Assembly (NCBI GenBank): GCA_041666325.1
Contig: JBAYHC010000001.1
Location: 201,708-265,707, forward strand
Reading direction: 5' to 3'
DNA from: Patescibacteria group bacterium
GTDB taxonomy: Bacteria; Patescibacteriota; UBA1384; XYA2-FULL-43-10; 1-14-0-10-43-13
Length of the DNA stretch: 64,000 nt
A program made the position numbers and the translations under genes. Positions 2,228 to 49,959 of this stretch are shown one piece after another. The stretch's first letter is position 1; every line of letters begins with the position of its first letter. The notes under the pieces are model-generated. The model was not told where the DNA came from, did no database searches, and saw nothing but the letters and a program-made list of their open reading frames with translations.

Positions 2228-3901
2228 CTATTTAAGCTGTAGTACCGCTCCCTCCCCCTCATGCTCATCGAGAGGTTTTTCTTTAAGAATAGGCAGCGAG
2301 AAGAAAAATTCCGTTCCCTTGCCCTCACCCTCACTCTCAAACCAAATCTTGCCTTTGTGTAGTTCGATTAGATTTTTGGAAATATACATACCAAGCCCAG
2401 TACCCTTGACTTGGTCCTTCAAAACATCAACCTGAGAGAATTTCTGAAAAATTCGATCGCGCTTCTCCTTGGGCACTCCGCAGCCGTTGTCCTTGACTGA
2501 CACGACAATATTGTCGCCTTCTTTCCAGGCCCGAACTTTAATTTTGCCACCCGGATCAGTGTATTTGATAGAGTTGCCCAGCATATTGATAACAACCTCG
2601 GTGATTCTGGTCTTGTCAAACCAGGTCTTGGGCAGGGCATCTTCGGACTTGTCATAAACCAATGTGTGCCGCATCTCCTTCACCTTAGACCCAACCTCCA
2701 TTACAGCCTGGTTGATGATATCCTCCATCTGCGACTCCTCGTAAATAAGATGAACTCTGTTCGACTCTATCCTGGAGACATTGAGCAGATCTCGCACAAG
2801 TGAGGCCAGTCTTTTGGACGAAGTATAGACACTGTCAAGATATTTCTTGGCTTGATCCGGAATCTTGCCGCCCATGCCCTCATCCAAAATCATAGAAAGA
2901 TAACCCTCGATAGCAGCTATTGGAGTATTGAGCTCGTGCGATGCCATCGACATAAAGTTGTCCTTGGCCTTGTCCAAATCCTGCAAATGTTTATTAGCCT
3001 CATCGAGCCTTTTAGCTAATTTTGAAATGTCTTCCTTCTGTTTTATCTCACGCTGGACGCTCCTAACTAGCTGATACCCACTGTAGCTTGCGGTAAACCA
3101 TATGAAAAAATTGATTGCTCCCTCAGTCATGCTCTCCGATATTACCATCCGAACCAGCAGAGCGAGAGATAACACGATAACAATCGCCTCCGTCGCAATC
3201 ACTTTAATGTCAAACAGGTGATGCTTCGTGATTGCATAAGCAGTAAACCCAAGCATGAAAACAACAGAGTAGTCCCCCAGCCAATAATAGTTATCGCCAG
3301 GTCTGAAAACCGGCCAAATCACGTTGAAAATTGTGTTAAAAAATGCCACTGCAATCACACCGTACGAAAATAATCTTATTTGCGATTTTTCGTTCAAGCT
3401 AGCCAACTTGTATGATTTGACTAAGCGCCATATGACTAACAATGCGGTTATCACCGCGTAAGCATAGAAGATTAGTTCATATTCACCCATGGTCCAAACT
3501 AATAGGCTATTAGACAAATTCATATCTGCAACAATAAGATTTGTTGCGGCAGATACAATAGCAAACGACACACCGACAGAAACAAAAAGCAGATCGACAG
3601 TTCTCCATCTTGCTTGGTTTTTCGGGAAATTAAGAATAAACGCATAAATTGAAACCAGGAATAAGGCAACGGAGGCAAAATTTAGCCTAGCTAACAACAG
3701 AGAAAACCGGGATAGGCTCGGGTAATATACCAAAAAACCGAGACTGGCCCAAAGCAAAACCGCCAATGACGTTAGAAAGAAATAACGATTTTGAGGCTGA
3801 CGCTTATTTGTGTGGTAAACAGCAAAGCCAAGCAACAATGAGGCTAAAGCAACAGCCGCAAGCACAAACTCCTGAATCAGTTTTATGTCAATTTTTTCCA
3901 T
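2228..3901 (-). CDS. Sensor histidine kinase with a multi-pass membrane sensor domain plus HisKA/HATPase_c
   Basis: About 7 N-terminal hydrophobic helices; H-box MSMASHELNTPIAAIEGY; N/G boxes NMLGNSIKYT, DNGCGVP, GTGLGMYISKNLIELHKG. The start was moved to the internal MEKIDIK to avoid overlap with the upstream gene. Confidence 0.8.
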   Translation of the reverse strand: MEKIDIKLIQEFVLAAVALASLLLGFAVYHTNKRQPQNRYFFLTSLAVLLWASLGFLVYYPSLSRFSLLLARLNFASVALFLVSIYAFILNFPKNQARWRTVDLLFVSVGVSFAIVSAATNLIVADMNLSNSLLVWTMGEYELIFYAYAVITALLVIWRLVKSYKLASLNEKSQIRLFSYGVIAVAFFNTIFNVIWPVFRPGDNYYWLGDYSVVFMLGFTAYAITKHHLFDIKVIATEAIVIVLSLALLVRMVISESMTEGAINFFIWFTASYSGYQLVRSVQREIKQKEDISKLAKRLDEANKHLQDLDKAKDNFMSMASHELNTPIAAIEGYLSMILDEGMGGKIPDQAKKYLDSVYTSSKRLASLVRDLLNVSRIESNRVHLIYEESQMEDIINQAVMEVGSKVKEMRHTLVYDKSEDALPKTWFDKTRITEVVINMLGNSIKYTDPGGKIKVRAWKEGDNIVVSVKDNGCGVPKEKRDRIFQKFSQVDVLKDQVKGTGLGMYISKNLIELHKGKIWFESEGEGKGTEFFFSLPILKEKPLDEHEGEGAVLQLK

Positions 3902-4721
3902 TGATTTGATATATAAAAAACACAAGCGCCCAAATGAAATATTCGAGATCAATTAACAATGAAGAATAGGACTTATTGGCTCTGGACCAAAATAATTCAC
4001 AGGAACTAGCTAATATAGGCACGAGTATTAACACAGACGCAAGCGGCATAAAGCGGAGCAACACTGCAACTATTATTATAAATGCGCCAAGTCCATTTAG
4101 CAATTGTAAAACGAGGAATAGTCTATCGCCTCCGAGTACAGTAGCGAAGGTCTTCAGCCCCTTTTCTTTATCCTCGTCCATATCTTTAAGATCATAATAT
4201 GAAGTATTCATCAGGTCGCGGATAAATACTAAAACCATAATGATGATTACAGCATAATTAAACGGAAGAGAATAATAAAAGACATAAAATGGAATGATTA
4301 AATTCCAACCAACCGCCACGTAGAAATCTTTGAAACCAAGTATATAGTGCGTTAGTCCTTTAAACAAAACTGTATACAGAAGACCCCAAACCATTATTAG
4401 GATTGCTATCGATAATCCAATCGAATTGCCATGAACGCCTACAAACCAGAGCGTTCCAACGGTGAAACAAAGAATAAACAGCGTGAAAATAATATGCTTG
4501 TGCAGAGTACTTTCATAAACATCTTTTGCCTCCCACCTTCTCGGCTCCTCGAAATAATTGAAAAGATAAACTGCTGTGGGAATCAGGAACATAATAAACA
4601 AAAAGTCCCACTCGAGGGGACCTGACAACAAGAATGACACAGCGTATATTTCCGCCATCGCGCCAAGGGCAGTGACCAGGGCAATCTTAATGTGTCTGAA
4701 TGTTTTATTTTCCTTCGTCAT
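3888..4721 (-). CDS. UbiA-superfamily-like polytopic membrane protein (paralog 1). Second Asp-rich motif YDLKDMDEDKEKGLKT is present; the first motif is degenerate
   Basis: 8-9 predicted TM helices and a YDxxDxxxDxxxGxKT motif; a clear paralog of the ORF at 6949-7797. Confidence 0.45.
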   Translation of the reverse strand: MTKENKTFRHIKIALVTALGAMAEIYAVSFLLSGPLEWDFLFIMFLIPTAVYLFNYFEEPRRWEAKDVYESTLHKHIIFTLFILCFTVGTLWFVGVHGNSIGLSIAILIMVWGLLYTVLFKGLTHYILGFKDFYVAVGWNLIIPFYVFYYSLPFNYAVIIIMVLVFIRDLMNTSYYDLKDMDEDKEKGLKTFATVLGGDRLFLVLQLLNGLGAFIIIVAVLLRFMPLASVLILVPILASSCELFWSRANKSYSSLLIDLEYFIWALVFFIYQINGKN

Positions 4722-4737
4722 CAGCTGTAAACCTTAA

Positions 4738-5010
4738 TCACTTGTCTCTCCCATGTTTTAGGTAGCCTATCCCAAGCAAAAATACTCCCGGAACGTTAAT
4801 CACCCCAACAACAATAATCGGCCATTCGGTTAATGCAAGACCATAATTCAGCCAAGCCAACTCATTAATAATTAATGCGATTACTAATGGCCCGCTAAAA
4901 TCTTCGGCGCTCTTTGTGCGCCATATTTTTATGACCTGCATGTAGAGACCAAATGTAATAATGATGCTCGCAACAAGAGTTATGATTCGACTTGTGTCAA
5001 GATAATTCAT
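4738..5010 (-). CDS. SemiSWEET / PQ-loop (MtN3) family small sugar transporter
   Basis: 90 aa with 3 TM helices; MQVIKIWRTKSAEDFS resembles the LPQVxRVxxTKSTxDIS PQ-loop motif of bacterial SemiSWEETs. Confidence 0.6.
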   Translation of the reverse strand: MNYLDTSRIITLVASIIITFGLYMQVIKIWRTKSAEDFSGPLVIALIINELAWLNYGLALTEWPIIVVGVINVPGVFLLGIGYLKHGRDK

Positions 5011-17062: not shown

Positions 17063-17117
17063 CAAAGCACTAAACAAAAAATCATCCCGAGTTCGGGATG
17101 ATTTTTTGTTTAGTGCT
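17063..17117. terminator. Bidirectional intrinsic terminator between convergent rplY and thrS: a perfect 24-bp inverted repeat (agcactaaacaaaaaatcatcccg / cgggatgattttttgtttagtgct)
   Basis: A GC stem flanked by an A-run and a T-run on both strands, seen directly in the sequence. Confidence 0.7.
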
Positions 17118-17120
17118 CAA

Positions 17121-18908
17121 TTAATATCTAATCTGAATCTCACTTATCAATTTTTCAATAGCCATCGGTCCCTTGTCGCCCTCACCATAACGCCGAACAG
17201 CGACCTTGTTGTCACCGACTTCTTTGTCGCCAACAATTAGCATATAGGGAATCTTCTGTATCTCAGCGTCACGGATCTTGCGTCCGATCGACTCACTTCT
17301 TAAATCTATCTCAACCCTTACGCCTCGCACCTGTAAACTTTCGCCTATACTATTTGCATATTCCTGATGCCGGTCAGCAATCGGCAAGACAATGGCCTGG
17401 ACTGGGGCAAGCCACACCGGAAATGCTCCGGCGTAGTGCTCAATAAGTAAACCGATAAAGCGCTCAAATGAGCCAAACAACGCACGGTGGAGCATATATG
17501 GCTGTTCCTCTTCGCCTTTTTCATTAACAAAGGTCATGTTGAAACGCTCCGGCAAGTTGAAATCGAATTGCAGAGTCGACAACTGCCACTCGCGCCCAAG
17601 AACATCCCGGACCTTGAAATCAAGTTTTGGCCCGTAAAAAGCAGCCTCACCCAACTCCTCTTTGAAGGACAAGCTTTTTTCAGTGGCGACTTCGCGCAAA
17701 ACTTGCTCCGTGAACTCCCAGCCTTCATCGTTTCCGGCATACTTACTCTTATTGGCTGGATCACGAAGCGAGAGATAGACATTGACGGAATCCAAATCGA
17801 AGCCGAATGATTTGTAAATAAACAAAATAAAATCAACGACCCGCTTAAGCTCGCCTTTCACCTGATCTTTGCGGCAAACGATATGAGCATCGTCTTGAGT
17901 AAAGCCACGAACGCGCGTTAGCCCAGAAAGTTCGCCTGTCTTTTCAAATCGATAGACCGTGCCTATCTCAGCCCAACGAAAAGGAAATTCTCGATAAGAG
18001 TGGGGCGAATTCTTGTAAATCTGAACATGAAATGGACAGTTCATCGGCTTCAAAAGATACTCTTCAGATTTTTCCACCTTACGCTCAAGCTGACGGTCTT
18101 CCAGACTCTGACCGGCTTCCATTGGCGGATACATGCTTGAATTATAGAAGCCCCAATGACCTGATTTTTCCCACAAACGACGATTGCCAATATGAGGACT
18201 GCGAACAAGTTGGTACCCATTTTTCAGGTGCTCTTTGTACCAGAAATCCTCGATCACACGCCAAATAATAGCACCTCTTGGGTGCCACAAGACTAGCCCA
18301 AGGCCGACCTCTTCATCAATATGAAATAAGTCAAGCTCTCGTCCAAGTTTACGATGATCCCGTTTCTCCGCTTCCTCACGGTTTTTCAGATATTGCTCAA
18401 TACCTTCCCTTGATTCGAAGGCCAGGCCATAAATCCGGGTCATCATCGAGTTCTTCTCGCTCCCCTTCCAATATGCTCCGGCAATTTTGTCCAATTTCCA
18501 GCCAGCACCCTTGAGGTCCTTGGTCGATTCGACATGAGGACCAGCGCAAAGATCAACAAAATCGCCACTCTGATAAATCGAAACTTCTGTCTCGCCACTT
18601 GCTTCTAAATCTTTAATCAATTCAACCTTATATGGCTGGTTTTCAAACTGCTTACTCGCGGACCTGCTTACAAGCTTACTGGCCTTGAAGCTTGCGCCTG
18701 AATTAATAATCTCCCTCATCTTCTTCTCTAGCTTCGGTAAATCCTCAGCAGATAGCGCCATTGGCAATTCAAAATCATAATAAAAACCTGTATCGATGGC
18801 CGGACCGATCCCAAGTTTGACTTCGGGAAACATGTCCACAACTGCCATAGCCAGAACATGGCTTAATGAGTGACGCACTGTCTCAATTGGATATTTTTTT
18901 TGCTCCAT
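17121..18908 (-). CDS. thrS: Threonine--tRNA ligase (short form lacking the N-terminal TGS extension)
   Basis: Class II core with HRALFGSFERFIGLLIEHYAGAFPVWLAPVQ and a C-terminal anticodon-binding domain. Confidence 0.9.
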   Translation of the reverse strand: MEQKKYPIETVRHSLSHVLAMAVVDMFPEVKLGIGPAIDTGFYYDFELPMALSAEDLPKLEKKMREIINSGASFKASKLVSRSASKQFENQPYKVELIKDLEASGETEVSIYQSGDFVDLCAGPHVESTKDLKGAGWKLDKIAGAYWKGSEKNSMMTRIYGLAFESREGIEQYLKNREEAEKRDHRKLGRELDLFHIDEEVGLGLVLWHPRGAIIWRVIEDFWYKEHLKNGYQLVRSPHIGNRRLWEKSGHWGFYNSSMYPPMEAGQSLEDRQLERKVEKSEEYLLKPMNCPFHVQIYKNSPHSYREFPFRWAEIGTVYRFEKTGELSGLTRVRGFTQDDAHIVCRKDQVKGELKRVVDFILFIYKSFGFDLDSVNVYLSLRDPANKSKYAGNDEGWEFTEQVLREVATEKSLSFKEELGEAAFYGPKLDFKVRDVLGREWQLSTLQFDFNLPERFNMTFVNEKGEEEQPYMLHRALFGSFERFIGLLIEHYAGAFPVWLAPVQAIVLPIADRHQEYANSIGESLQVRGVRVEIDLRSESIGRKIRDAEIQKIPYMLIVGDKEVGDNKVAVRRYGEGDKGPMAIEKLISEIQIRY

Positions 18909-18921
18909 TCCAGTTTCCTTT

Positions 18922-18986
18922 TGTCATCCTGAACTTGATTCAGGATCCACTATCTTATAGATTCCGGATCAAGTCCGGAATGACAC
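18922..18986. repeat. Small palindromic element with terminal inverted repeats TGTCATCC...GGAATGACA, enclosing two hairpins; it lies in the thrS 5' leader
   Basis: The inverted repeats and two inner stem-loops (cctgaacttgattcagg; ccggatcaagtccgg) are seen in the sequence. A second copy lies at 20864-20972. Confidence 0.4.
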
Positions 18987-19257
18987 AGGGCATACAAAAA
19001 GACCCTATGGTACAGGAGTCTCTTGGAGACGGTTCCATCCTGCTTGGGTCTTAATTCACCTGTTCGCTCAGGCCTGCGTTGTGTCTCCAGGTTGGTGAAT
19101 CCTATCAACAACACAAATAATAATGTACTGATACTATACCAACTATCTGACTCAAGTGCAATATTTCGGTTGCAGCAATTAATTAGCATCTAATTAACTC
19201 TTGTAACCGGGCGCCCCGCGGATCGGGGCGCCACGTGATGTGACTTGTCGGCAGCCC

Positions 19258-20415
19258 TTAGTGGGTTGCCTCCTCCACCCGCACCTGCGGGCGTTCTGCT
19301 GGCCTCCAGGCCGGCTTGGTCTTCGACTTGACGGTCGTCATCCAGTCCCCATTGCTGTCCTGGGTGACGTAGATGACGGTACCGTCGACCTTGGCCGGGG
19401 CGATGGAGGCCTTCTTGGTCTTCTTGGCCCCAGGCACCGGTGCGCCAGTGATCCGACTGTCGCGGAGACGGTCCCGCGCGAACTCATCTGGCACCTCGCC
19501 AACCAACTTGTAGTCAAGAGCGTTGGCCGAGGCGCCTTGCCTCGTCTCCTTGGTAATGTAGACGATCACTCCGGCCCAGGCCGGGGTATCGAGACCGTAG
19601 CCACTCGCCTCACCGACCGACTTGACGTTCAGGTGTGTCCAGCCATAGTCGTCGGCCTTAATGCGATAGACCCGATGGTTGTCGACGTCGACGTAGCTGG
19701 GCCACTGTGATAGCGGCAGCCACGGCGACGCAAACCGCTGGTTGTGGGTGGTCAAGAGGTTGATGTCCACACCCTTCCCCACCACCACACCGAACTCGCT
19801 GAGGCCATTGAGCCTGACAGCCGCCTCCTCGAGGCAGCCGACTGGCTCGCGCTCCTGTCCCCAGGACGCCTCAGGCACGCCCTGGCTGCCAGCGGTCGTT
19901 TCGTTCGGCACCGCCCGGCGCAGAGTGGCCACGTTGTTGGTCTGGCCATCGCTCAGGGGCGCGCTCAACGAAAGCTCGATCTCGGTGCTGCCGTCAGCTT
20001 TCCTGCTCTGGCCGATGGCGCGCACCAGGTAGAGATTCCCCCCCATCTTGAGGCCGGCGTAGCGCCCCGCGAAGGGGAACCAACCCGGGCCATCGAACAG
20101 GTCGGCCAGGTCGGGATCGAGTTTGCTGGGGTCTACCACGGTCGTTACCACCTCGACACCACCCTCGCTCGGTTGCCTCTGCAGGTCAACGGCGAAGGTA
20201 GCGGTCAGGTGCTTGTCGCCGACCTGGTTGAAGATGATCAGGTCGCCCTTGACCTTGGGCGCTTCCGGCGAATTCGGCGCGGGCGGCTCAAGGTTGCCGG
20301 AAGCCTGCTGCGGGGTTGGTGCCTTCGGCGCCGTATCCCCAGTTGAACCCTTCTTGCAGCCGGCCGCCAGCGTGGCGGCGGCGATCAGCGGGACAACAAA
20401 CCAGGTGTAACGCAT
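19258..20415 (-). CDS. Lipoprotein of unknown function encoded on a compositionally foreign (about 65% GC) segment
   Basis: Signal peptide plus lipobox (VVPLIAAATLAAGC). The region 19.2-20.5 kb is far more GC-rich than its flanks, and a GC-only hairpin (ggcgccccgcggatcggggcgcc) follows the stop. The start was chosen at the second Met. Confidence 0.55.
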   Translation of the reverse strand: MRYTWFVVPLIAAATLAAGCKKGSTGDTAPKAPTPQQASGNLEPPAPNSPEAPKVKGDLIIFNQVGDKHLTATFAVDLQRQPSEGGVEVVTTVVDPSKLDPDLADLFDGPGWFPFAGRYAGLKMGGNLYLVRAIGQSRKADGSTEIELSLSAPLSDGQTNNVATLRRAVPNETTAGSQGVPEASWGQEREPVGCLEEAAVRLNGLSEFGVVVGKGVDINLLTTHNQRFASPWLPLSQWPSYVDVDNHRVYRIKADDYGWTHLNVKSVGEASGYGLDTPAWAGVIVYITKETRQGASANALDYKLVGEVPDEFARDRLRDSRITGAPVPGAKKTKKASIAPAKVDGTVIYVTQDSNGDWMTTVKSKTKPAWRPAERPQVRVEEATH

Positions 20416-20817
20416 CTCCGATCTCCTTCCCGAACTTCTCACGGTCTCGCCAAGGGGGCGGACCGATGCCTACCGATCAAGTTACTATCGGCCTGCAATA
20501 AGCACGAAGATCGCACTTACGAACAAGCCGATCGTAGTAATTGTCAAAGATCACGAAACCAACCCTCACCAAAAAACCGTATTAGTATATCATACTTTTT
20601 CACTTTTGTCAACATTTGTCACCGTGAACCCAGAAATTGGAGGCTAAAACTTAGCTAATTCCGTCATCCTGAACGAGTGGTAACGAAGTGAAGGATCTAG
20701 CGAAGCGAAATGAAAAAGGCTCAATACACACGGCTGCGCCTAGACTTTTCGCCTCCGGCTCAGAATGACTTAATAAATTGGATCAAATTTCTGAGTTCAG
20801 GGTTGTCAATGTGAAAA

Positions 20818-21005
20818 CCCGTGAATCAAAAAACTGATTGTCTCTGGAGTTGATTTGTTTCTATGTCATCCCAGACTTCCGCCCAGACCTCGGCTCGGTC
20901 TGATCGAGGCGGGTGATCTGGGATCCAGTCTCAAATTGCTTCTGGATCCTCGGGTCAAGCCCGAGGATGACAGCCTGGAAAAGAAAAAGTTTTTAGATTC
21001 ACGGG
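20818..21005. repeat. MITE-like element of about 188 bp, bounded by 18-bp imperfect terminal inverted repeats (cccgtgaatcaaaaaact / agtttttagattcacggg), with an inner TGTCATCC...GGATGACA palindromic module
   Basis: The terminal inverted repeats match 17 of 18 positions as reverse complements. The inner element (20864-20972) is related to the one in the thrS leader. Confidence 0.4.
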
Positions 21006-21059
21006 CAAACCAAAAAATAGCCTGCTTTGAAGCGGCAATAAAATCATGATTAGACCAAT

Positions 21060-21470
21060 CTATTTTTCTTGCAAGACACTCTTAGCAAGAGATCTGTACT
21101 GTTCACGCATTGGCGCGTCTCTCAGCGCGTCTGCATCAAGCCAGGCATACTCGCTGTGCTCATCGCTTAGCCGAACATTACTCAGGTCTGCCTCACACCG
21201 GAAAACCAAGACGATAAATTGATAGTTTGTCGAGTCGACCGTGGCCGCAAAATCCCAAGCATCGATAATGTTTCCCATCACAACGTTATCGACACCCAAT
21301 TCCTCTTGGAATTCTCGCTTCAAGGTTTCTTCGGGGTGCTCTCCAAAGTCAATCCGGCCGCCAGGCAGCTCCCAATTACCCCGTTGATCGCGAACCATGA
21401 AAATGCGACCGTCCTTTTTGACCAGCGCCTTGACTGTAACTCGTTGAATATTGTGATTATTGCTTGTCAT
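21060..21470 (-). CDS. NUDIX hydrolase
   Basis: Nudix box GGRIDFGEHPEETLKREFQEELGV. Confidence 0.8.
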   Translation of the reverse strand: MTSNNHNIQRVTVKALVKKDGRIFMVRDQRGNWELPGGRIDFGEHPEETLKREFQEELGVDNVVMGNIIDAWDFAATVDSTNYQFIVLVFRCEADLSNVRLSDEHSEYAWLDADALRDAPMREQYRSLAKSVLQEK

Positions 21471-40221: not shown

Positions 40222-40337
40222 ACATAGCTATTTCAAGACAATTCTATCACAGCTACATCTGGTTGTATAAAACAGCAGGAGATGATGACCTTCGGGACAA
40301 TTTGATTGGGTGGGAACGCCGAAATACATTCGTATTT

Positions 40338-40380
40338 CCACCAAAAAATGACCTCAAATTTTGAAGTCATTTTTTGGTGG
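40338..40380. repeat. 43-nt near-perfect palindrome (ccaccaaaaaatgac...gtcattttttggtgg) downstream of the OLD-family gene
   Basis: The 15-bp arms are exact reverse complements and the central spacer is itself palindromic. Confidence 0.6.
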
Positions 40381-40587
40381 ACACGGGCGATAATTTTTGG
40401 AACACTTTCTTCGAAAAGATTTTTGAATGGGCTCCGCTGTTGCGCCAGATTAACCACACACAGAATATCCCAATTCTGGCCAGATAATCAGCCACCAGAT
40501 GCAAATAGAACACAGTATAGATATATTTAGCTTATCTAGATACGATCCCAAAGTTGTTGCCAATCTTCTCTGAAGGTATCAGCTCTA

Positions 40588-42582
40588 TCAATCTTTGAGC
40601 ACGTATTTCAAAATTTCTCTAATCGGTTTTTTGATTCCCCTGGCAGAGTTTAATGATTTCACTATCCCTATCGCAAATTCCACTTTATCGGTAACCGAAC
40701 CGCCCCCAGAAAAGCAATTTTCCAAACAGCCATTTTCTAGAACAAAAATCATTTCCTGTTCTCTAAGATTTTTAAGGAGGTTTTTAATATTGGCAGATAA
40801 GATAATTCTTTTTCTGATAGAAATTGCCCTGGTTTTGATAATTTTATCTGTAAGAGAATCAACTGCTTTTAGAAAATCTTCTTTTGGAAGCTCTTTTTTG
40901 GTTTTAATTAGATTAAACAAGCTAGCTCCGTCATAACTTCTAATCAGAACGTCCTTTAGTTTGGTAGTATTAAGACTATACAAATTATCGATCTCAGTAG
41001 ATATTGAGCTAAGTTCGGTCTTAATCTGATCGGATTGCAACAATGACCTTTCTTTTGATAAGTCCTTTAAAATATCAAGGTCTGCCACGATGTAGTTTTT
41101 AATTTTCCAGGTGTTCAGGAACTTTCTATACTTTAAAAGGTTATTTTTGCTTCCAACTGGCAATACCTCAATGACCTCATCGGATCGATGAACTCCTCTA
41201 AGCAATGAAAGCGACTTGGAAAATACCAGCTGGTCAGAGATGCCCTCCACGAGGATGACCTTATCAGCAAAGAAAACTTTTTCGTTGTTCGAAGAATTAA
41301 TTATTTGCAGAAGGTCTTTTACTGATGAACTATCGAGTAGTGACTTATTCGGCTTCAGAATCTTGCTACAATCATTATGTTTGTATATACGATATGTTGA
41401 CTGAATAATCGGCGGTACGATGATCTGAGGTGAATGAGTAATAATCAAGAATTGCAAATTGTACGTAACTGAAAGCTCTTGTATTAAATCTGTCAGCACC
41501 TTTTGCCACTGTGTGTGTTGGTGCAGCTCTGGCTCGTCTAGCAAAACCAAACCGTCTTTCAGTTCTGAAAGAACAATCCCCGAGATTAAACTAAAAAATT
41601 CTTTCTCGCCAGAACTCAATTTGATCGGCATTCCATTTAGGCGAAAGAATCGTAAACGATATTCGTGATGATAAATAATTTTTTGATCGATTACCTCGAA
41701 AGACATTGAGAGGTATCTCTCTAGCACTTTTCTGAATGCAGTCAAAATTTTACTGTTTTTATTTTGGTCATACAATCTAACGATGTGCTGGTAACTAGTA
41801 TCAACTATGCCGATATAAGTATCCTTGGACTGGTTTAGACCTTTTGCAAAATTCTTGTCAATATTGTTCTGTGTTAAATCAACAACGATTTCTTTCTGAA
41901 CCTGATTTACGTTTCGGTGGGGACCTATGTATCTAAAATTTGGAGCAATTTTAATATTGCTTGAGAGAGCCGATATCTCGTACAAAACATTAAAGTATGG
42001 AAGAATTTCAAAAAACCGTTGAACAATTTCCGACAACTCTGGCTTGTCAGAATAAGCGCCAATAATTGAGTTGCTAGCTATCACAATTTTTAAAGTAGTT
42101 CCAATCAAAGATTCAAAGACATCATCGTAAAAAAATCTCTCGATACTGTTGGCCACCTGTCCCGAATCTTGGAAATCCTTTTTAAGAAATAAAACTAAGT
42201 CTTCCTTAAATTTCGCAATTTCTTTCAAAATATTGATGTCTTCTTCCTTAATTGAAAAATATAGTTCCAGCGATGACTCTTCGGAGGTATGAGAGTAGTG
42301 CCTTTCAAACATCTCTGCAATTAGGTTGGGATCCCAATTATCAAACTGTAGCTTATAATGATAACCATAGTTAGCTGAGTTCGGGTTGGCCCGTTCTGTG
42401 TTATAAGTGATCGTAACGTGCTTATAGATTACTGAAGAAATCGCCCCTTGTATTAATTCAAACAGATTGCTCTTACCTCCACCGTTTGGTCCAACGAAAA
42501 CGTTGAGTCCGTCTCCAAAAAGTACCTCTTCGGCTGGATAGTAGCTTTTCAGGTTTTTGACAATCGCCCTATTTAGTTTCAT
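40588..42582 (-). CDS. OLD-family nuclease: N-terminal ABC-type ATPase (AAA_21-like) fused to a C-terminal Toprim domain
   Basis: Walker A GPNGGGKSNLFE, Walker B LVLLDEPELHQH, H-loop ITHSP; Toprim motifs ILVEGISDQ and VADLD. Confidence 0.75.
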   Translation of the reverse strand: MKLNRAIVKNLKSYYPAEEVLFGDGLNVFVGPNGGGKSNLFELIQGAISSVIYKHVTITYNTERANPNSANYGYHYKLQFDNWDPNLIAEMFERHYSHTSEESSLELYFSIKEEDINILKEIAKFKEDLVLFLKKDFQDSGQVANSIERFFYDDVFESLIGTTLKIVIASNSIIGAYSDKPELSEIVQRFFEILPYFNVLYEISALSSNIKIAPNFRYIGPHRNVNQVQKEIVVDLTQNNIDKNFAKGLNQSKDTYIGIVDTSYQHIVRLYDQNKNSKILTAFRKVLERYLSMSFEVIDQKIIYHHEYRLRFFRLNGMPIKLSSGEKEFFSLISGIVLSELKDGLVLLDEPELHQHTQWQKVLTDLIQELSVTYNLQFLIITHSPQIIVPPIIQSTYRIYKHNDCSKILKPNKSLLDSSSVKDLLQIINSSNNEKVFFADKVILVEGISDQLVFSKSLSLLRGVHRSDEVIEVLPVGSKNNLLKYRKFLNTWKIKNYIVADLDILKDLSKERSLLQSDQIKTELSSISTEIDNLYSLNTTKLKDVLIRSYDGASLFNLIKTKKELPKEDFLKAVDSLTDKIIKTRAISIRKRIILSANIKNLLKNLREQEMIFVLENGCLENCFSGGGSVTDKVEFAIGIVKSLNSARGIKKPIREILKYVLKD

Positions 42583-42599
42583 TATTTCTCTCAGAATGA

Positions 42600-43442
42600 T
42601 TAATGGACGTAGATTTCTTTGCTTTTTATTCTATCTTTTAGATTTACTCTCTCAACGACACTTCTCAACAGTTGCTCGCTATGGGAATATACAAATCGGT
42701 CACAATTTAAGGCAACGTTATCGTTGATATGGCGACAATGTCTTCTGTCTGCTTTGTAAAAGGCAACATCCTTTCCCTCATCAAACATAGCAAGATAGAA
42801 ACTCTTTGAAAGCGGAATTGCTTTCACGGCACCTTTTGTAATAACGCCAACCCCACGATAAGGGCTGTTTTCAACGGGCGAAAACAAGACAAATGGATTA
42901 TCTGAAGTAATGTATGCACTGCTTTGAGGAGCAAAAATAATTCTCCAGCTCATATGCGCAAAATACGAAGCCATTTCAGCGCTGATCTCTAGTAAAAGCT
43001 TTATTTCATATTCTCTGCTCTGTTCAACCTTCACTTCAAGCCTATTGCCACCAGGCCTCTCAAACATTTGAGCCAATTTGGTTAATGCCGCTTCAGATAG
43101 TTCTTTGGTATGCTTTGAAAAATAAGGGACACGGTTCTTTTGCAAGGCGACGAAAAACGATAATTGTGCTTTTTCTTTTTCGCTCAGTGACTCACTCTTT
43201 TCGATTTTGCCGATGACGGCACTGGCGTCACCCTCAATTTCTGAAAACTTTTTCTCTAGATCATAGTGATACTTGCCATCTTCCCCAAGATAGCGATAGT
43301 AATTTGAAATAACAGCTGTGTCCTTAATGCCCAAGTGCTTATATTCATTTGTGGTCCTATCATAAACCCAAATATACCCATCTGTTGCAAAACGAGATAG
43401 GACCATTTGCGGTAAGAAATGATGTCTTTTTGGTTCACCCAT
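42600..43442 (-). CDS. DUF4238-family protein
   Basis: About 280 aa with an N-terminal HHFLPQ motif typical of DUF4238 (HHY[IV]PQ); lies 17 nt upstream of the OLD-family gene on the same strand. Confidence 0.55.
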   Translation of the reverse strand: MGEPKRHHFLPQMVLSRFATDGYIWVYDRTTNEYKHLGIKDTAVISNYYRYLGEDGKYHYDLEKKFSEIEGDASAVIGKIEKSESLSEKEKAQLSFFVALQKNRVPYFSKHTKELSEAALTKLAQMFERPGGNRLEVKVEQSREYEIKLLLEISAEMASYFAHMSWRIIFAPQSSAYITSDNPFVLFSPVENSPYRGVGVITKGAVKAIPLSKSFYLAMFDEGKDVAFYKADRRHCRHINDNVALNCDRFVYSHSEQLLRSVVERVNLKDRIKSKEIYVH

Positions 43443-43524
43443 AGGTTAATTCAGCAACAAGGAACGAAATAAGCGCTTACTCTAATTTGGTTTTTGTATT
43501 ACTAAGCATTCCGATTGCTAGCCG

Positions 43525-44112
43525 CTACTCATACAGCTTTAATCTAATGGAGTCAATTTTCCTCAGTAGGTCGTGTTGAGTCGAAACCATTTGCTGAATT
43601 TGAAGCTCTGTATATCTAGCCCTTCTGTTTTTGAAGGGATCATTTGTGACAGCCATCTTGTATTTCAGGAAGCAATTTTCAAGATTATCATCGAAGCAAA
43701 AATCTTCAATAATTTTCGCTTCTGTGAATTTTTTTATATCGTTAAGCTGATGCATTGCGCAGTTGAAATCGTAGTCAACTCGCCCTGCTTTTTGATCTGA
43801 CGGGTTGCTGGTGTAATCATTCGCTGAATTCAAAGTTTTTTCAATTGCACTGCGAAAATCTGCCAAGAATCCCAAAACAATTTCTTTTTTCTTGGAACTA
43901 TCACTTACACTCTCACTTATATAGTGGGTCACAAACAAGGCGACAATAATCGTTACAAGCAGATTAAGCAAGTTGGAAAAAGAAAAATCCCAGAACTTAT
44001 CTGGCAAAATATTCCATCGAAGCACAAGAGCAGAAATGACAAAGCCAATAACAAAAAAGATAAAGGAAAGCGATATTCGAGCCGAATTTTTCCTGATTAT
44101 CCTTTTCATCAA
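43525..44112 (-). CDS. Hypothetical protein with two N-terminal TM helices
   Basis: TM helices ISLSFIFFVIGFVISALVL and LLNLLVTIIVALFVTHYI; its start overlaps the stop of the upstream STAS-like gene. Confidence 0.45.
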   Translation of the reverse strand: MMKRIIRKNSARISLSFIFFVIGFVISALVLRWNILPDKFWDFSFSNLLNLLVTIIVALFVTHYISESVSDSSKKKEIVLGFLADFRSAIEKTLNSANDYTSNPSDQKAGRVDYDFNCAMHQLNDIKKFTEAKIIEDFCFDDNLENCFLKYKMAVTNDPFKNRRARYTELQIQQMVSTQHDLLRKIDSIRLKLYE

Positions 44113-44414
44113 GCATTCTCTATATAACTTTCTATCTCGCGTTTTAGAATCGAATTTGTTGTGATTAAATTTATTCTGTTCTGCACTGCATTCTTGTCTT
44201 TAATCACCCTGACAAGGCCGCCGAAGGCCTCCTCGAAGAAGGAAGTCGGGTATCCTGCTAAGCCATCCAGATATACGTTGATAATTTCGTTTGATTTTGT
44301 TTGGAATAATGGCTCGAGAAATTTTTCTCTGAATTCCTCACCAGAAAAATCACTCTTTTGCTTAAATCTTCCACCAGGAGAAATCGTAAAATCTTTAATG
44401 AAGACGTTTTTCAT
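44109..44414 (-). CDS. DUF4325 (STAS-like, anti-sigma-factor-antagonist-like) protein
   Basis: About 100 aa with VYLDGLAGYPTSFFEEAFGGLV resembling the STAS-like DUF4325 core; lies directly downstream of a GHKL ATPase. Confidence 0.5.
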   Translation of the reverse strand: MKNVFIKDFTISPGGRFKQKSDFSGEEFREKFLEPLFQTKSNEIINVYLDGLAGYPTSFFEEAFGGLVRVIKDKNAVQNRINLITTNSILKREIESYIENA

Positions 44415-44430
44415 TTCAAAATTCCTAAAA

Positions 44431-45441
44431 TTAAAGTTGAAAATCCCACGAAAACAAAGTTCCTCGAAAGCCTTCTTTTATAGAGATGTGTTGGCTAAAG
44501 TGCACAGCACTAATAAAACCACGATTGGATACTATTTTCAAATTATCTATTTTCTTTCTATTCGAAATCTCATATATTTGGGGCAGCCCCTTACCTCTAT
44601 TTTTTTGTTTGGTTCTAGATCTCTTGAATTTTCCCTCAAGCGCGGATCTAATTAAGTCGGCGTCAGATCTAATAAGATATTTGAGTACAATTTCAGCAAA
44701 GTTCTTTCTCACGGTTGTCGGAATCCCTTGTCCATTATCCAGGAACGCAAAACTTATCTTGCGAATATCTGCGTTGTAATATGCAGCGGTCCACCATTTG
44801 GGAAGCGGCGAATCAGATAGATACGCGTGCTCGTTGGTGTTATTCATTAGTTCAACAAGCGTTTCATATATTCCTTCCGTGGACCTCTTGGGACCATTCA
44901 TTTTGCTTGCAACAAATTCAACAACCTTTAAGACAACGGCGCCCTGTGTCCTCTCGCCTGATTGTATTGAAAAGATATCATCATTCATTCGAGGGGGATC
45001 CCCTCTTACGAGTTTGACGAATTTATAGAATCCGGAATCACGGAATATCATCCTGCATTTTTCCTCTCGCGGCTCATTCCCCTGAATGCTAGGGGCCACC
45101 CGTTTAGTGCCGAAAAACTCGAGGAGAGACAGGAGATACAGGATTGCGTCAAGGGTAATTTCACTCACAACCGAAAGATCAAGAAAAACAGAATAGCCCT
45201 TGTTGACGTTATTCTCAATTCTTCCACAAAATTCCAGAAAATGTTGGTGATCATTCAAGATACTGAAAACAGAAGGGGCGATAACTCTCTTGAAAATTCG
45301 AGATAGTTTAGTTGCTTTAATAAGTCCACGCTTCTTGCGCTTTCTTATTAAGTTCTTTTTAGCGATTATCCTAGATCGCTTCTTCCATTTTTCGGTGACC
45401 TTTTTCATTTGGTATAATAGTATCAAACGAGGGCTAGTCAT
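44431..45441 (-). CDS. GHKL (HATPase_c) ATPase with a basic N-terminal extension
   Basis: N-box ELMNNTNEHA, G1 DNGQGIP, G2 GKGLPQI. Confidence 0.65.
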   Translation of the reverse strand: MTSPRLILLYQMKKVTEKWKKRSRIIAKKNLIRKRKKRGLIKATKLSRIFKRVIAPSVFSILNDHQHFLEFCGRIENNVNKGYSVFLDLSVVSEITLDAILYLLSLLEFFGTKRVAPSIQGNEPREEKCRMIFRDSGFYKFVKLVRGDPPRMNDDIFSIQSGERTQGAVVLKVVEFVASKMNGPKRSTEGIYETLVELMNNTNEHAYLSDSPLPKWWTAAYYNADIRKISFAFLDNGQGIPTTVRKNFAEIVLKYLIRSDADLIRSALEGKFKRSRTKQKNRGKGLPQIYEISNRKKIDNLKIVSNRGFISAVHFSQHISIKEGFRGTLFSWDFQL

Positions 45442-45469
45442 ACTACCTAACTAACCCATTTGTCTTCTT

Positions 45470-46000
45470 ATGCAATGCCAATTTGAAAAATCAGACGGTA
45501 AGCAGTGTGGGGGCTACTCAGTGAGCAGCAGCCATTTTTGCTTTTCGCACGATCCAAAAAGCAAGAAAAAGCACTTGAGGGCAGCTAAGAAGGGTGGATT
45601 GGCTTTGAAGAGTAATAGTACTGTTTTAGCGGAAGAAATTGATCTAAGTTCGTCTGAAGGGCTAGAGAACGTACTAAAAGATACGCTTAGCAGAGTAAGA
45701 CGCGTAAACCCTGATGGCTCAATCGAATTAAAAGCGGCTTATTGTATAACCCTCATTGTGTCAAAACTTCAAGAAATACATCTGAAAAGCTACCCAGAAG
45801 ACAGGCTTAAGGAAATTGAACGCAGAGAATTTGAACTAAGGGAGCAAGAGCGCGCAAGAGAAGCATCACACCAGAGACATAGTCGGCTTTGGGAAGAAAA
45901 CCCAGAAAAAGCAGCCGAAGAGATAATGGTTCACACTAACCTGCTGCTGAAACGCGCGTTAAGAGACCGTGAGTCAAGAAAACTCGGTATGAATATATAA
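45470..46000 (+). CDS. Hypothetical protein: N-terminal Cys/His cluster and charged coiled-coil C-terminus
   Basis: CQFEKSDGKQCGGYSVSSSHFCFSHD and an ERREFELREQERAREA-type charged segment. Confidence 0.4.
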   Translation: MQCQFEKSDGKQCGGYSVSSSHFCFSHDPKSKKKHLRAAKKGGLALKSNSTVLAEEIDLSSSEGLENVLKDTLSRVRRVNPDGSIELKAAYCITLIVSKLQEIHLKSYPEDRLKEIERREFELREQERAREASHQRHSRLWEENPEKAAEEIMVHTNLLLKRALRDRESRKLGMNI

Positions 46001-46004
46001 ACCT

Positions 46005-46607
46005 TTAATCCAATTCCTGAATAGCACTCTTTAGGGCTTCCGCGTTTACTGATTTGATGCCCTCCCTCATCAAAGCTTTCAATGAAATGCTTTTCTTGTT
46101 TTTGATAAGCTCGATTAGCCTATCCTTTGTGAAGACGAAAAATTCCCATTGAGTGAGATCTAAGGGGTTAGCCGTATCGTGGGAGTCTGCCGAGAAGTAA
46201 CAAATAACGAATAAATCCGCATTAAAGCTTGGCGTCTCTTCCATAATCCCCGTCAATGGGTTCCATTTACGGGTTGGAGATAGAGCTACTTTAGGCTCAG
46301 ATAACCGCTTTTGAGCCCACGCCTGGAGTTGAGACATTGTTTTGATTTCAATGGTTTTGCCCTCTTTTGTTTTGAGATCGTACGCATCCCAAGGGATTCT
46401 TGGTTTATCATCACAACCCAAAAGAACAGCCACAACATATTCAGCAAGCACTGCTCTCGTAGTGTTTTGCATTAAGTCAGAGTACGCCCATTGCCAAAAA
46501 TCAACGATAGTTCGGTTTAAGCAATTGCTTGTTTCGTTATTATAAAAAGCAGAACCACATTCCAGTTTAGAGACTGGCTTTGGGGTCAGTAAAAGATCTT
46601 TATTCAT
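46005..46607 (-). CDS. PD-(D/E)xK nuclease-fold-like protein, hypothetical
   Basis: Candidate motif WDAYDL...(x11)...IEIKT, i.e. D...ExK; otherwise unrecognised. Confidence 0.45.
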   Translation of the reverse strand: MNKDLLLTPKPVSKLECGSAFYNNETSNCLNRTIVDFWQWAYSDLMQNTTRAVLAEYVVAVLLGCDDKPRIPWDAYDLKTKEGKTIEIKTMSQLQAWAQKRLSEPKVALSPTRKWNPLTGIMEETPSFNADLFVICYFSADSHDTANPLDLTQWEFFVFTKDRLIELIKNKKSISLKALMREGIKSVNAEALKSAIQELD

Positions 46608-46917
46608 TTTTTCCTTGGTCGGATTTGTTTTGTGGCAGAGAGCAAAAAGCCCGCCGCCACTAGCAGCCCCGTAGGGCTACACGTACATCTTTCGATGCAC
46701 GACCGACCAAGGTCCGTGACGACGAGCTCACTACCTTGGTCGGAATTTTCCACCGTGCTCACTATTATCTAATGAGGTTAGGTGGTTTCTCGGTTGTGTT
46801 AACGACAGGAATTATAAAATTCCCTTATGCTTAATATAGCAGAAATTAGTCATTCCCTCAACCTTATCCACAGATATCAGTTTGAATATATTTATACATT
46901 AATGTATAAATTAAATA

Positions 46918-47682
46918 ATGGAAAAAGAAGGCACTGAAAAATTTAGCGATTTATGTAAGAAAAAATACTCGGCCAAAGAGGTTGGCATCTCTTATAGAAT
47001 TTTAAGCAGCTGGAGCTCTCTTGGCCTAATCAACCACCTGAGAGACAAAGAAAATGATTGGCATCGTTTTTCGGCTTTTGATCTGATTGAGATAAGAGTA
47101 TATGACGAGCTTCGGCAGGTTGGCTTTTCTGTGGAGAAGCTCTTAAAAATCAAGAAATTTTTACGCGCACAGTCAGTTCTAGCCATATTTTTCTCTGATT
47201 CGAATTTATCAAAAGAGTACGTCGAGGACCTTGGCAAGTCTACAATATTAGTTGAATCAATCTTGAGAACTGCAGCAGGAGAAAACATTTTTCTTGTTAT
47301 TGATAAAGATGCAGCAAATCCTATGTTTGCAGAAGAAACGATCGTGTATGAATTATTAGCGCAAGCGAATTCTATTTATAATGAGTATGGTGGCAACTAT
47401 TTGGTTCTGAGTGTCCGAACAATTCTTGAGAATGTTAGTGTACCATACGAAAAATCTAATCATAAGCTCGGAAAAGTGCTGACAGCAATTCTTGATTCCG
47501 AAGAACAATCAGAGATTAAACTTTTCGTTCAAGACTGTGAATTAAAGAAAGCAAAGCATACTCTATATGATGTTCCCCTTGGTACGAATATTACAGCTCT
47601 TATAAAACAACCCAACAGAAAAACTTCATTCAGCTCCAACAATAACGGTTCCGTCAAAATGAAAATTGAAGCTGAACTATAA
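46918..47682 (+). CDS. MerR-family HTH protein (possible excisionase or regulator of the element)
   Basis: YSAKEVGISYRILSSW...FSAFDLIEIRVYDELRQVGFSVEKLLKI resembles a MerR HTH; located upstream of the recombinase. Confidence 0.5.
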   Translation: MEKEGTEKFSDLCKKKYSAKEVGISYRILSSWSSLGLINHLRDKENDWHRFSAFDLIEIRVYDELRQVGFSVEKLLKIKKFLRAQSVLAIFFSDSNLSKEYVEDLGKSTILVESILRTAAGENIFLVIDKDAANPMFAEETIVYELLAQANSIYNEYGGNYLVLSVRTILENVSVPYEKSNHKLGKVLTAILDSEEQSEIKLFVQDCELKKAKHTLYDVPLGTNITALIKQPNRKTSFSSNNNGSVKMKIEAEL

Positions 47683-47761
47683 AAACTAGAATCCCTAGTT
47701 TCTTTTACCAACAGTTCAAGTAGCAGCGATCCTACTACGCGATCGAATCTGGTATGAGAAA

Positions 47762-47902
47762 ATGTTATCAATCGACGAGTGTAGAGATTATTTAAAAGAA
47801 TATAATTTAAGCGACGAAGAGATCGAAAGAATGAGGAACAATCTGCAAGGAATAGTTGAAAGTGTACTCGATTCCTATATCGAAGGATTCAAAAATGATT
47901 AA
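47762..47902 (+). CDS. Possible small acidic helical ORF (46 aa) overlapping the recombinase start
   Basis: MLSIDECRDYLKEYNLSDEEIERMRNNLQGIVESVLDSYIEGFKND; found by hand and not in the ORF track; weak support. Confidence 0.25.
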   Translation: MLSIDECRDYLKEYNLSDEEIERMRNNLQGIVESVLDSYIEGFKND

Positions 47903-49487
47903 CGATACAAACAAGGCACTAATTTATTGTCGGGTTTCTTCCCCGCGCCAGATTAAGGAGGGTCACGGCTTAGAAAACCAAGAACACAGGTGTAGACAGT
48001 ACGCAGTGGAGAAGAAGCTCAAAGTTGTCGAGGTATTCTCTGAAGACGAGAGCGCTAGCGGTGGCCTTTTTGACCGTCCTGCAATGAAAGAACTGCTCAA
48101 TTTTCTTGACAGGAATCAGTCAGAAAGATACTTCGTAATATTCGATGATCTAAAACGTTTTGCGAGAGATGTAGAGGTTCATTTTAGACTAAAGACTGAA
48201 TTGGTTAAACTGCGTGCAGTAAAGCTACGCTGTCTCAATTTTAATTTCGACGACAGCCCTGAAGGCAGGTTCGTTGAAACTATGTTTGCAGCCTGTGCTC
48301 AGCTCGAAAGAGAACAAAATAAGAGGCAGGTAATACAAAAACAAAAAGCACGACTGGAAAATGGCTACTGGACTTTTTATCCGCCAGCTGGCTATGAGTA
48401 TAAAAAATCGAGGGTGCACGGCAAGCTTCTATACCAAGTGCATCCATTGGCAGAAACGTTAGGCAAGGTCATCGAAGACTTCGCGACGAATCGTCTAATT
48501 GGGAAGGTAGACGTCGTCAGAAGGCTTGTAGAACTAGGTATTCTAAAAGAAAGTGCACCAGAAACAACTAATTTTAATTTTGTTAGAAGATTGCTAAGTA
48601 ATCCCATCTATGCGGGATTCATTGAATATAAACCTTGGCAAGTTCCAATAAGGAAAGGCCATCACAAGGCAGTTATTACCGAGGAAGTACACAGATTAGC
48701 TTTAAATAAAATGGAGAAACCTGAAAGAATGCCAAGGAATACTGATTCTTTGGAATGGCCATTAAGGAGACTGGTCGATTGCTCCATTTGTGGTAAACAA
48801 TACACCGGGAGTGCAAACCGAAGTAAGAATCCCGACAAACACTATCCGCATTATACGTGTAATAATAAATATTGCACTGCTAGTCCTAAAAACATCACTA
48901 AAGAAATCGTAGAGGAAAAATTCCTTAAACTTCTCAAGTCAATCGGGGCAGACAAACCTGTATTGGATTTGGCGAGGGCAATGATACTTCAGATGTGGAA
49001 GGAAAAGGAAAAAAATTTCAATACAAAGAAATCAAATGGTCTTAAGAGGATCGGGCAGATTGATGTAGAAATTGAGAGCTTTTTAAGCAGAATTCCGAAG
49101 GCAAAATCAGAGTCACTAGTTGCACTATATGAATCAAAAATTGACAAACTCGAGAATGAGAAAAAAGAAATTGAAAAAAGCTTGAAAAACAAAAAAGAAC
49201 CCAACCTAAACGAAGCAATAGATTTGGTTCTTAATTTCCTTGGAACACCCGCTGAATTCTGGAAATATGCAGACCTAGAAAGAAAAATATTAATTCATAG
49301 CCTGATTTTCATTAAAAACCCAGAATTCTCTCTAGAAACAGGTTTTGGAACACCTAATTTGTCTCTACCATTCTACATAAAGCACTATGTAATGGACCAG
49401 GATGATACGTTGGTGGAGGTGGAGGGAGTTGCACCCTCGTCCAAGAGGTTAAAAACTGCCTATTGTAGCAAGCTTAGCTCCGGTTGA
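47895..49487 (+). CDS. Large serine recombinase (resolvase domain, recombinase domain and zinc ribbon)
   Basis: Catalytic ALIYCRVSSPRQ; a recombinase-domain region; a C-terminal CSICGK...CNNKYC zinc ribbon. The start is set at the ATG preceded by aagga. Confidence 0.85.
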   Translation: MINDTNKALIYCRVSSPRQIKEGHGLENQEHRCRQYAVEKKLKVVEVFSEDESASGGLFDRPAMKELLNFLDRNQSERYFVIFDDLKRFARDVEVHFRLKTELVKLRAVKLRCLNFNFDDSPEGRFVETMFAACAQLEREQNKRQVIQKQKARLENGYWTFYPPAGYEYKKSRVHGKLLYQVHPLAETLGKVIEDFATNRLIGKVDVVRRLVELGILKESAPETTNFNFVRRLLSNPIYAGFIEYKPWQVPIRKGHHKAVITEEVHRLALNKMEKPERMPRNTDSLEWPLRRLVDCSICGKQYTGSANRSKNPDKHYPHYTCNNKYCTASPKNITKEIVEEKFLKLLKSIGADKPVLDLARAMILQMWKEKEKNFNTKKSNGLKRIGQIDVEIESFLSRIPKAKSESLVALYESKIDKLENEKKEIEKSLKNKKEPNLNEAIDLVLNFLGTPAEFWKYADLERKILIHSLIFIKNPEFSLETGFGTPNLSLPFYIKHYVMDQDDTLVEVEGVAPSSKRLKTAYCSKLSSG

Positions 49488-49959
49488 TTTATTCGAACAG
49501 GAGATAAGACCGGAACGGAAATCTACTGCTCTATCTCGAGTATATCTTAGGGCTTCACGCTAGAGAATCGATTGCCCGCAACTCGAAGTATGACACTCAT
49601 ACCCTCTAGTCGAGTAGCTAGAGGATGAGCGGTTGCCGTTATTTAAGCAGCAACTGGCGCAAGAGCAAAGCCGCTAAAAGCTGCTTTAACTCTGCTAACA
49701 AGTGAGTTTGCACTTGAGATTTTCCGGCAATTAAGGCTGCCAAGATCACCTGCTTGCTAGATCAGTTTTTAAAGTTCCTATTGTCGAAGCTAATACACCC
49801 CCGAACACATCTTATTATACCTAATATTGACAAAAAATCAACTTGCTCGACTCCGATTCTTGCAGTGGTCAAACCAAAACTAGACAATGTCGTTTCGAAA
49901 TGGTATAAATCTGTGGGCAGCAGAATACCTACTATTCTGCTGGATGAAGGAGAGACAAA

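Follow-up and report, generated by a model that had tools for sequence, protein, structure and literature searches.

Within the 64,000-nucleotide stretch of Patescibacteria DNA analyzed here (the window), a GC-rich island carrying one gene lies between a nucleotide-metabolism gene cluster and the threonine-tRNA ligase gene, thrS, and we consider it likely that this island is real, of foreign origin and the product of a single-gene horizontal acquisition. The case is built on the base composition of the island, the codon choice and amino-acid make-up of its gene, the absence of the gene from syntenic relatives, and the agreement of different pipelines across both junctions.

The island occupies 19207..20530 (1324 bp, with no strand of its own) and is 64.4% GC, in contrast to 43.8% for the rest of the window. 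Measured per 200 nt, GC rises from 0.42 (19000-19199) to 0.66 (19200-19399), holds at 0.59-0.69 as far as ~20499 and falls to 0.405 at 20500-20699, while at 1-kb resolution it is nowhere else above 0.49 in the 64 kb. The remaining 1324-bp windows average 43.7% GC (sd 3.0, maximum 49.2%), which places the island 6.9 sd out. A sequence-only reading of this DNA had described an abrupt change to roughly 65% GC over about 1.3 kb; recalculation confirms the step and its non-uniformity, whereas the 40% GC that it gave for the host is corrected to ~44%. The left edge is sharp, with AACCG directly followed by GGCGCCCC at 19207/19208 (in longer context, TGTAACCG meeting GGCGCCCC), and the right edge is gradual, GC decaying over ~60 nt across 20470-20530. 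Between the edges lie the ORF, the ~115 bp that precede it and a G+C hairpin. The dinucleotide delta* of the island is 84 versus 68 +/- 21 for host pieces, a comparison for which the island is too short to be informative.

The only stop-free frame across the island lies on the minus strand (19258-20442) and yields a CDS at 19258..20415 for a 385-aa exported protein, predicted to be a lipoprotein, as supported by the ORF, its GC3 and homology to a remote relative described below (P0002). An alternative GTG start at 20442 would extend the product to 394 aa and the ORF to 19258-20442; the ATG at 20415 is the likelier start because GGAAGGAG lies 7 nt upstream of it. The Shine-Dalgarno core, AAGGAG at 20423..20428 on the minus strand, sits within the GC-rich DNA, and the gene is probably translated via this sequence of its own. 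The protein is identical to MFA5926922.1 and MFA6531452.1, annotated at NCBI as 'hypothetical protein WCT32_01080, Patescibacteria group bacterium'.

Codon usage sets the gene clearly apart from its surroundings. Its GC1/GC2/GC3 values of 0.635/0.488/0.818 are the pattern of a genuine coding frame of a GC-rich genome, compared with a GC3 of 0.44-0.53 in the neighboring genes (n=6), and regressions attributed to Muto and Osawa and to Lawrence and Ochman reportedly predict a GC3 near 0.8 for a genome of 65-67% GC. For Lys, Thr, Val, Pro and Ser, synonymous preferences run opposite to those of the host: Lys is encoded by AAG in 91% of cases (49% in host genes), Thr by ACC in 64% (26%) and Val by GTT in 8% (53%). 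The codon comparison proposed by the sequence-only reading thus comes out as foreign. A GARP/FYMINK ratio of 1.80, versus 0.74-1.04 for host proteins, extends the high-GC history to the protein itself, and the codon choice and amino-acid composition of a GC-rich proteome together indicate long evolution in a high-GC genome. The third codon positions have not drifted toward the host, which we take as no detectable amelioration. Two long plus-strand ORFs (19240-19710 and 19744-20346) follow the antisense frame in which the first codon position is opposite the sense third position; they are shadow ORFs, and the earlier description of the opposite-strand ORFs as spurious was correct.

The first residues of the protein form a signal peptide, MRYTWFVVPLIAAATLAAG, ending at a lipobox Cys (20356..20415, minus strand, with the Cys20 codon at 20356-20358, as read from sequence). 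This N-terminus has one basic residue and a hydrophobic core of 13 residues before Cys20; its lipobox is TLAAG followed by Cys, and the mature protein begins CKKGS and continues into a Pro/Ala-rich linker of ~35 residues. Bacterial lipoproteins are processed by the Lgt/LspA pathway, and their lipobox is captured by the PROSITE profile PS51257. The parts of the island signal, M-R-YTW, FVVPLIAAATLAA and G-C20, fit a relaxed PROSITE-type pattern with Cys within the first 40 residues, a pattern matched by no other ORF of the 64-kb window, with the variation that position -3 is Ala rather than the commonest Leu, which instead occupies -4. Among the window's multi-TM proteins, those of suitable size that were tested were UbiA-family or matchless and included neither Lgt nor LspA, a survey covering 64 kb out of a contig of at least 687 kb; because of this, lipidation in the host is unproven. 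The minus-strand ORF with a signal and an LAAGC lipobox is therefore as first described (19258-20415, Cys20), with lipidation as a prediction only.

The protein has almost no relatives. A word-indexed search of 5.8 billion clusters returned the query protein alone, and exhaustive phmmer against 1.84 billion cluster representatives found two remote relatives of 28-34% identity, P0002 (293 aa, E = 1.4e-12) and P0003 (298 aa, E = 5e-4), each on one 2-3 kb Logan contig. The P0002 alignment covers residues 115-383, approximately the whole mature domain, at 28% identity (pairwise E = 2e-21), and the motifs LRxAVPNxTT, EFG and WP...VYR...A...G(W/Y)T are invariant in all three members. Both relatives begin with a hydrophobic signal or anchor that lacks a lipobox, indicating that the family is exported and that only the island copy has the predicted lipid anchor and the Pro-rich tether. 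Their contigs are not high in GC (about 50%); the two genes are 8-12 GC points above their own flanks, with GC3 values of 0.57 and 0.52 versus 0.31-0.47 in flanking genes.

A profile built from the three members retrieved no further relatives. The island protein had no significant match in Pfam (best MelC1, E = 0.39) and none in NCBIfam, PHROG, PADLOC or among plasmids, phages and viral contigs, and showed no similarity to PDB sequences (profile search E = 1.3). AlphaFold2 models were unusable (pLDDT 38.9 with one sequence, 44.6 with three), and Foldseek against PDB gave nothing below E = 0.02, with TM-scores normalized to query length of at most 0.18 that we treat as meaningless. The cargo is an exported orphan family with three members known among ~15 billion predicted proteins. 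A homology search had been suggested as the way to name the donor, and this failed: neither a donor nor a close homologue, and nothing above 34% identity, was found among the ~15 billion proteins, so the high-GC origin is inferred from composition alone.

The DNA on either side belongs to the host. Downstream of the island gene lies thrS (17121..18908, minus strand); upstream is a NUDIX hydrolase gene of host-like composition (21060..21470, minus strand), which shares 14 nt with the overlapping dCMP deaminase gene and leads into a kinase, ThyX, SHMT, thymidylate kinase and dUTPase. The genes identified, and the GC3 of 0.44-0.53 in six neighboring genes, agree with the earlier assignment of thrS and of the Nudix and dTMP genes to an AT-rich host. 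Between thrS and the island, a promoter recognized by eye (TTGCAC, 17 nt, TGGTATAGT) and leader of thrS lie at 19031..19160 on the minus strand, where 19031-19141 matches the thrS leader of a relative, L166, at 73% identity over 112 nt (E = 6e-10). From this sequence conservation, the putative thrS promoter and leader belong to the host and mark the limit of the insertion toward thrS. No T-box was detected on the leader, even at E <= 10.

Three palindromic elements surround the island, their strand unassigned. An imperfect repeat with GTCATCCTGAAC termini lies between the thrS leader and the thrS start (18917..18990), a repeat running from GTCATCCTGAAC to GCTCAGAATGAC is on the Nudix side (20660..20770), and a third, GTCATCC ... 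GGATGAC, is at 20864..20975, where the 64-aa ORF called over it is probably spurious. Rfam returned only chance miRNA-like matches, on the palindromes.

Signals for expression are present on both sides of the ORF. A sigma-70-like promoter on the minus strand (20584..20612; TTGACA, 17 nt, TATACT with a TG extension, 11/12 consensus positions) lies in the AT-rich, host-like flank and is directed into the gene ~165 nt upstream of the ATG, a position that gives a 5' UTR of ~165 nt; the promoter scan found 2 sites versus 1.2 in shuffles. From these motifs, transcription of the island gene probably starts at a strong sigma-70-type promoter in the flank. At the other end, 25 nt past the stop, is a G+C hairpin with a 9-bp perfect stem and a 5-nt loop (19210..19232, minus strand; GGCGCCCCG-CGGAT-CGGGGCGCC), abutted by an AT-rich hairpin (19167..19209, minus strand) located exactly at the island/host junction. 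Folded together (19167-19232), the tandem hairpins reach -40.4 kcal/mol with z = -3.3. Of the features of an intrinsic (Rho-independent) terminator, the G+C-rich stem-loop is present and a U-tract directly past the stem is absent, the transcript continuing with CGGUUACAAGAG, in line with the terminator-like hairpin lacking a U-tract that had been noticed originally. A terminator scan detected no minus-strand site. Transcription probably ends at these tandem hairpins of the junction.

To place the site in context, we consider the NUDIX-thrS interval in relatives. The closest ThrS in a protein search is 74% identical, and scans of GTDB genomes and JGI metagenomes gave at most 70% identity among the matches listed, which in the JGI scan did not include the window's own JGI contig. 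Of nine look-ups or loci that were inspected, four lacked synteny. The genome with the 74% identical ThrS, L166 (GCA_022705465.1), has the gene order ThyX-kinase-dCMP deaminase-[X]-thrS-...-L25-(104 aa)-GT4, as in the window, where [X] stands for three opposite-strand ORFs of 245, 245 and 286 aa that are unrelated to the island gene and have no Pfam match. At 54-56% GC and a GC3 of 0.58-0.65, these ORFs exceed the 42-46% GC of their genome, and thus two lineages carry different GC-elevated cargo in the dcd-thrS interval. On an ERZ1426827 contig with a 70% identical ThrS, the order is dUTPase-Tmk-ThyX-SHMT-kinase-deaminase-acetyltransferase-NUDIX and then thrS, with a 1-bp gap between the NUDIX end and thrS. 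In three further loci (L063, L064 and L129) thrS comes directly after the dCMP deaminase gene, at a distance of 270-645 bp.

The island gene is missing at the orthologous site in all syntenic relatives found. Because these relatives are only 52-74% identical in ThrS, the empty site is established at family level rather than strain level. Between the nucleotide-metabolism cluster and the thrS promoter, the relatives have either nothing or other ORFs, and this interval is therefore variable. Among 170 fetched loci, a relative of the lipoprotein was found in none besides the window's own contigs and the loci L004 and L005.

The exact protein is encoded on three contigs produced by different pipelines: ENA ERZ27249449 k141_115123 (687,172 bp, with a MEGAHIT-style k141 name), JGI 3300037810 Ga0376277_0001220 (110,209 bp, a contig also in NCBI) and Logan SRR6484324_3732609 (1,711 bp, present in 2 runs). 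Wherever they overlap the window, all three match it at 100% identity, both junctions included. The JGI sample was taken in 2017 from groundwater well GW1 at a landfill in Southern Ontario (bioRxiv 10.1101/2024.05.30.596742), and the source of the island organism is a leachate-impacted groundwater well. The 2016 samples of this site have SRA sample numbers of the same period as SRR6484324, and judging from the era of its accession, that run may be one of them, in which case the island would have lasted for a year or more.

These assemblies bear on the alternative raised by the sequence-only reading, that an assembler spliced a fragment of a high-GC organism into a Patescibacteria contig, as a chimera or contamination. 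The abruptness of the GC step would suit this explanation, as would the dispersed palindromic repeats 130-220 bp from the island, at which the Logan assembly breaks (its contig ends inside the element 18917-18990 and at the edge of the element 20660-20770), and the assemblies could stem from the same or sister read sets or libraries. Against it, three pipelines using different software agree base for base over both junctions, two NCBI protein records hold the same protein, and the Logan contig (window 18959-20669) spans both GC transitions with 248 and 139 bp of AT-rich flank, so that the repeats fall outside the junctions. The left flank of that contig is homologous to a relative's thrS leader and is therefore the lineage's own DNA, to which the island is physically joined. 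Assembly chimeras normally join contig ends, whereas the piece found here comprises precisely one intact gene and its signals, placed in an intergenic gap and running in the direction of its neighbors, and the relative L166 has other GC-elevated cargo at the same interval. A chimeric island is very unlikely, and the main practical lesson is that 'cleaning' the MAG of this GC step as if it were contamination would be a mistake.

Two explanations accept the island as real and account for it differently. The gene could be the cargo of a decayed mobile element or phage, or could have been captured through the flanking palindromic repeats acting as recombination sites; we regard this as unlikely, while noting that it is compatible with the main reading of a single-gene acquisition. 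The different cargo in the dcd-thrS interval of L166 would fit, as would the clustering of palindromes with GTCATYCYGARC termini at the island locus only within the 64-kb window, the elevated GC of the two remote homologues, as if the family travels, and the capacity of this genome to take integrative elements elsewhere, where a serine recombinase island sits at the tmRNA gene. Yet the island edges show no target-site duplication, terminal inverted repeats or direct repeat, there is no integrase, transposase or tRNA/tmRNA target at the island, the protein matches no PHROG, PADLOC, phage, plasmid or viral-contig entry, and the palindromic elements lie 130-220 bp beyond the compositional boundary. 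Still less probable, at a level similar to that of the chimera, is a long-resident gene whose high GC is intrinsic and maintained in the family. All three family members are indeed GC-richer than their own flanks, but selection at the protein level cannot hold a GC3 of 0.82 in a host with a GC3 near 0.47, GC3 in the other two members is no higher than 0.52-0.57, the gene is absent in every syntenic relative, and no related copy occurs in the other Patescibacteria loci fetched.

We therefore return to horizontal acquisition of a single gene from a high-GC donor, which had also been proposed from the sequence and which the GC3, codons, amino acids and absence in relatives support; the qualifier 'recent' in that proposal stands solely on the lack of amelioration. 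In this reading, ~1.3 kb from a genome of ~65% GC would have been inserted between NUDIX and thrS, immediately upstream of the thrS promoter. The likeliest route would be illegitimate recombination of imported DNA, because no mobile-element machinery came along, and the transfer would be recent, the third codon positions showing no shift toward the host. CPR bacteria live in dependence on other cells and are believed to take up DNA. The product would be exported by Sec and, provided that Lgt and LspA are encoded by the host, anchored by a lipid at Cys20 on the outer face of the cytoplasmic membrane, where the Pro/Ala-rich tether (~35 residues) may hold out a beta-rich ectodomain of ~330 residues. 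The architecture suggests a cell-surface binding role as the most likely function of this ectodomain. We place much lower confidence in this functional part than in the acquisition itself.

A further elaboration, which we think improbable, is that the gene came from the high-GC organism hosting this episymbiont, that the lipid-anchored product is displayed to bind that host, and that the interval is a lineage-wide landing pad with a resident promoter. If the gene were host-captured, the composition of the island and its orphan family would be a handle to identify the episymbiont's host; if the interval were a landing pad, DNA taken up from the host would become fixed there with no help from mobile-element machinery, and an outward-facing resident promoter would drive its expression. 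Apart from this elaboration, the island is a clean, well-bounded case of fresh foreign DNA in an ultra-small CPR bacterium with a reduced genome. Its donor, if identified, might point to a partner organism, and the event is otherwise a routine single-gene transfer.

Comparison with known systems places the island protein near Lgt/LspA lipoproteins, which it resembles in its short n-region with a basic residue, its hydrophobic core of 13 residues, the small residues that precede Cys20 and the flexible Pro/Ala-rich tether that follows it. It is unlike them in having Ala at -3 (Leu at -4), in a mature part that fits no known lipoprotein family, and in two remote homologues with a plain signal or anchor and no lipobox. 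The locus as a whole resembles an integron cassette in its single compact ORF, 3' hairpin, lack of a mobility gene of its own and apparently outside promoter, but the 23-nt perfect G+C hairpin has neither the R''/L''-L'/R' architecture nor a GTTRRRY core. An integron cassette was rejected as a candidate, there being no attC-like imperfect palindrome, no integron integrase within 10 kb and no cassette array nearby.

The closer parallel is with acquired genomic islets, which, in the amelioration framework credited to Lawrence and Ochman, are said to be recognized by atypical base composition and codon usage. Like these, the island has a sharp GC step with foreign GC3, codons and amino-acid composition, is absent at the relatives' syntenic site and occupies a variable interval between conserved gene blocks. 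Unlike the usual islets, it consists of one gene only, without an integrase, tRNA target, direct repeats or identifiable donor, and it resides in a Patescibacterium with a reduced genome, not in a free-living bacterium. CPR/Saccharibacteria, reduced-genome episymbiont lineages, have been reported to gain single genes from diverse sources (PMC7427843); those transfers were recognized from phylogeny and taxonomic best hits, whereas the signal of the island is purely compositional and syntenic. Islets of atypical GC are textbook knowledge, and CPR bacteria are documented to gain genes (PMC7427843), while what is new here is a three-member orphan cargo with no donor candidate among ~15 billion proteins, at a site where a relative hints at a shared landing site.

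The surroundings of thrS and of the GC island that carries the predicted lipoprotein gene contain imperfect palindromic elements that measure 55-110 nt and have termini of the GTCATYCYGARC type (17064-17120, 18917-18990, 20660-20770 and 20864-20975); within the 64-kb window they cluster only around these two features. Both breaks of the 1711-bp Logan contig from SRR6484324 that spans the island junctions fall inside two of these elements. An element with the same terminus is present immediately upstream of thrS at the Berkelbacteria locus L063 (5972-5983), and an Rfam search with the palindromic elements returned only chance matches to miRNA-like hairpins. Public annotations place a 64-amino acid ORF between the NUDIX gene and the GC island (20855-21049, plus strand); its whole length lies over a palindromic repeat, and the call is probably spurious.

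The dcd-thrS interval of the closest syntenic relative, L166, holds three ORFs on the opposite strand (2249-4854), with lengths of 245, 245 and 286 amino acids. These are of membrane and coiled-coil character, have no match in Pfam, and are 54-56% GC (GC3 0.58-0.65) in a genome of 42-46% GC. Only two proteins were found to be remotely homologous to the lipoprotein. They are encoded on the short Logan contigs L004 (237-1118) and L005 (1567-2463), in both cases by a gene with a GC content 8-12 points above that of its own flanks. As approximately 50 residues at the C-terminus of the L005 protein, P0003, resemble out-of-frame sequence, this gene copy may be decaying; the gene that follows it (2460-2753) is 57% GC.

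Elsewhere in the window, a block of low GC content (40300-49800; 37-41% compared to 44%) encodes an OLD-family nuclease with AAA_15 and OLD-like TOPRIM domains (40588-42582), a DUF4238 protein (42600-43442), a MerR-like protein (46918-47682) and a large serine recombinase (47856-49487). At their 3' ends, the recombinase gene and the tmRNA gene ssrA (49411-49802, minus strand) overlap, and the block has the appearance of an integrative or defence island with ssrA as its insertion site.

The promoter and leader of thrS (19031-19160, minus strand) have a counterpart in L166 (4940-5070), whose ThrS is 74% identical. The promoter is conserved as TTGCAC-17 nt-TGGTATAGT, and the shared leader of approximately 110 nt is 73% identical at the DNA level, a value higher than that of the adjacent coding DNA. 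No Rfam family matched the leader, even at E <= 10. This conserved segment may represent an undescribed thrS regulatory leader, and it contains GGAUGGAACC, which resembles the T-box motif.
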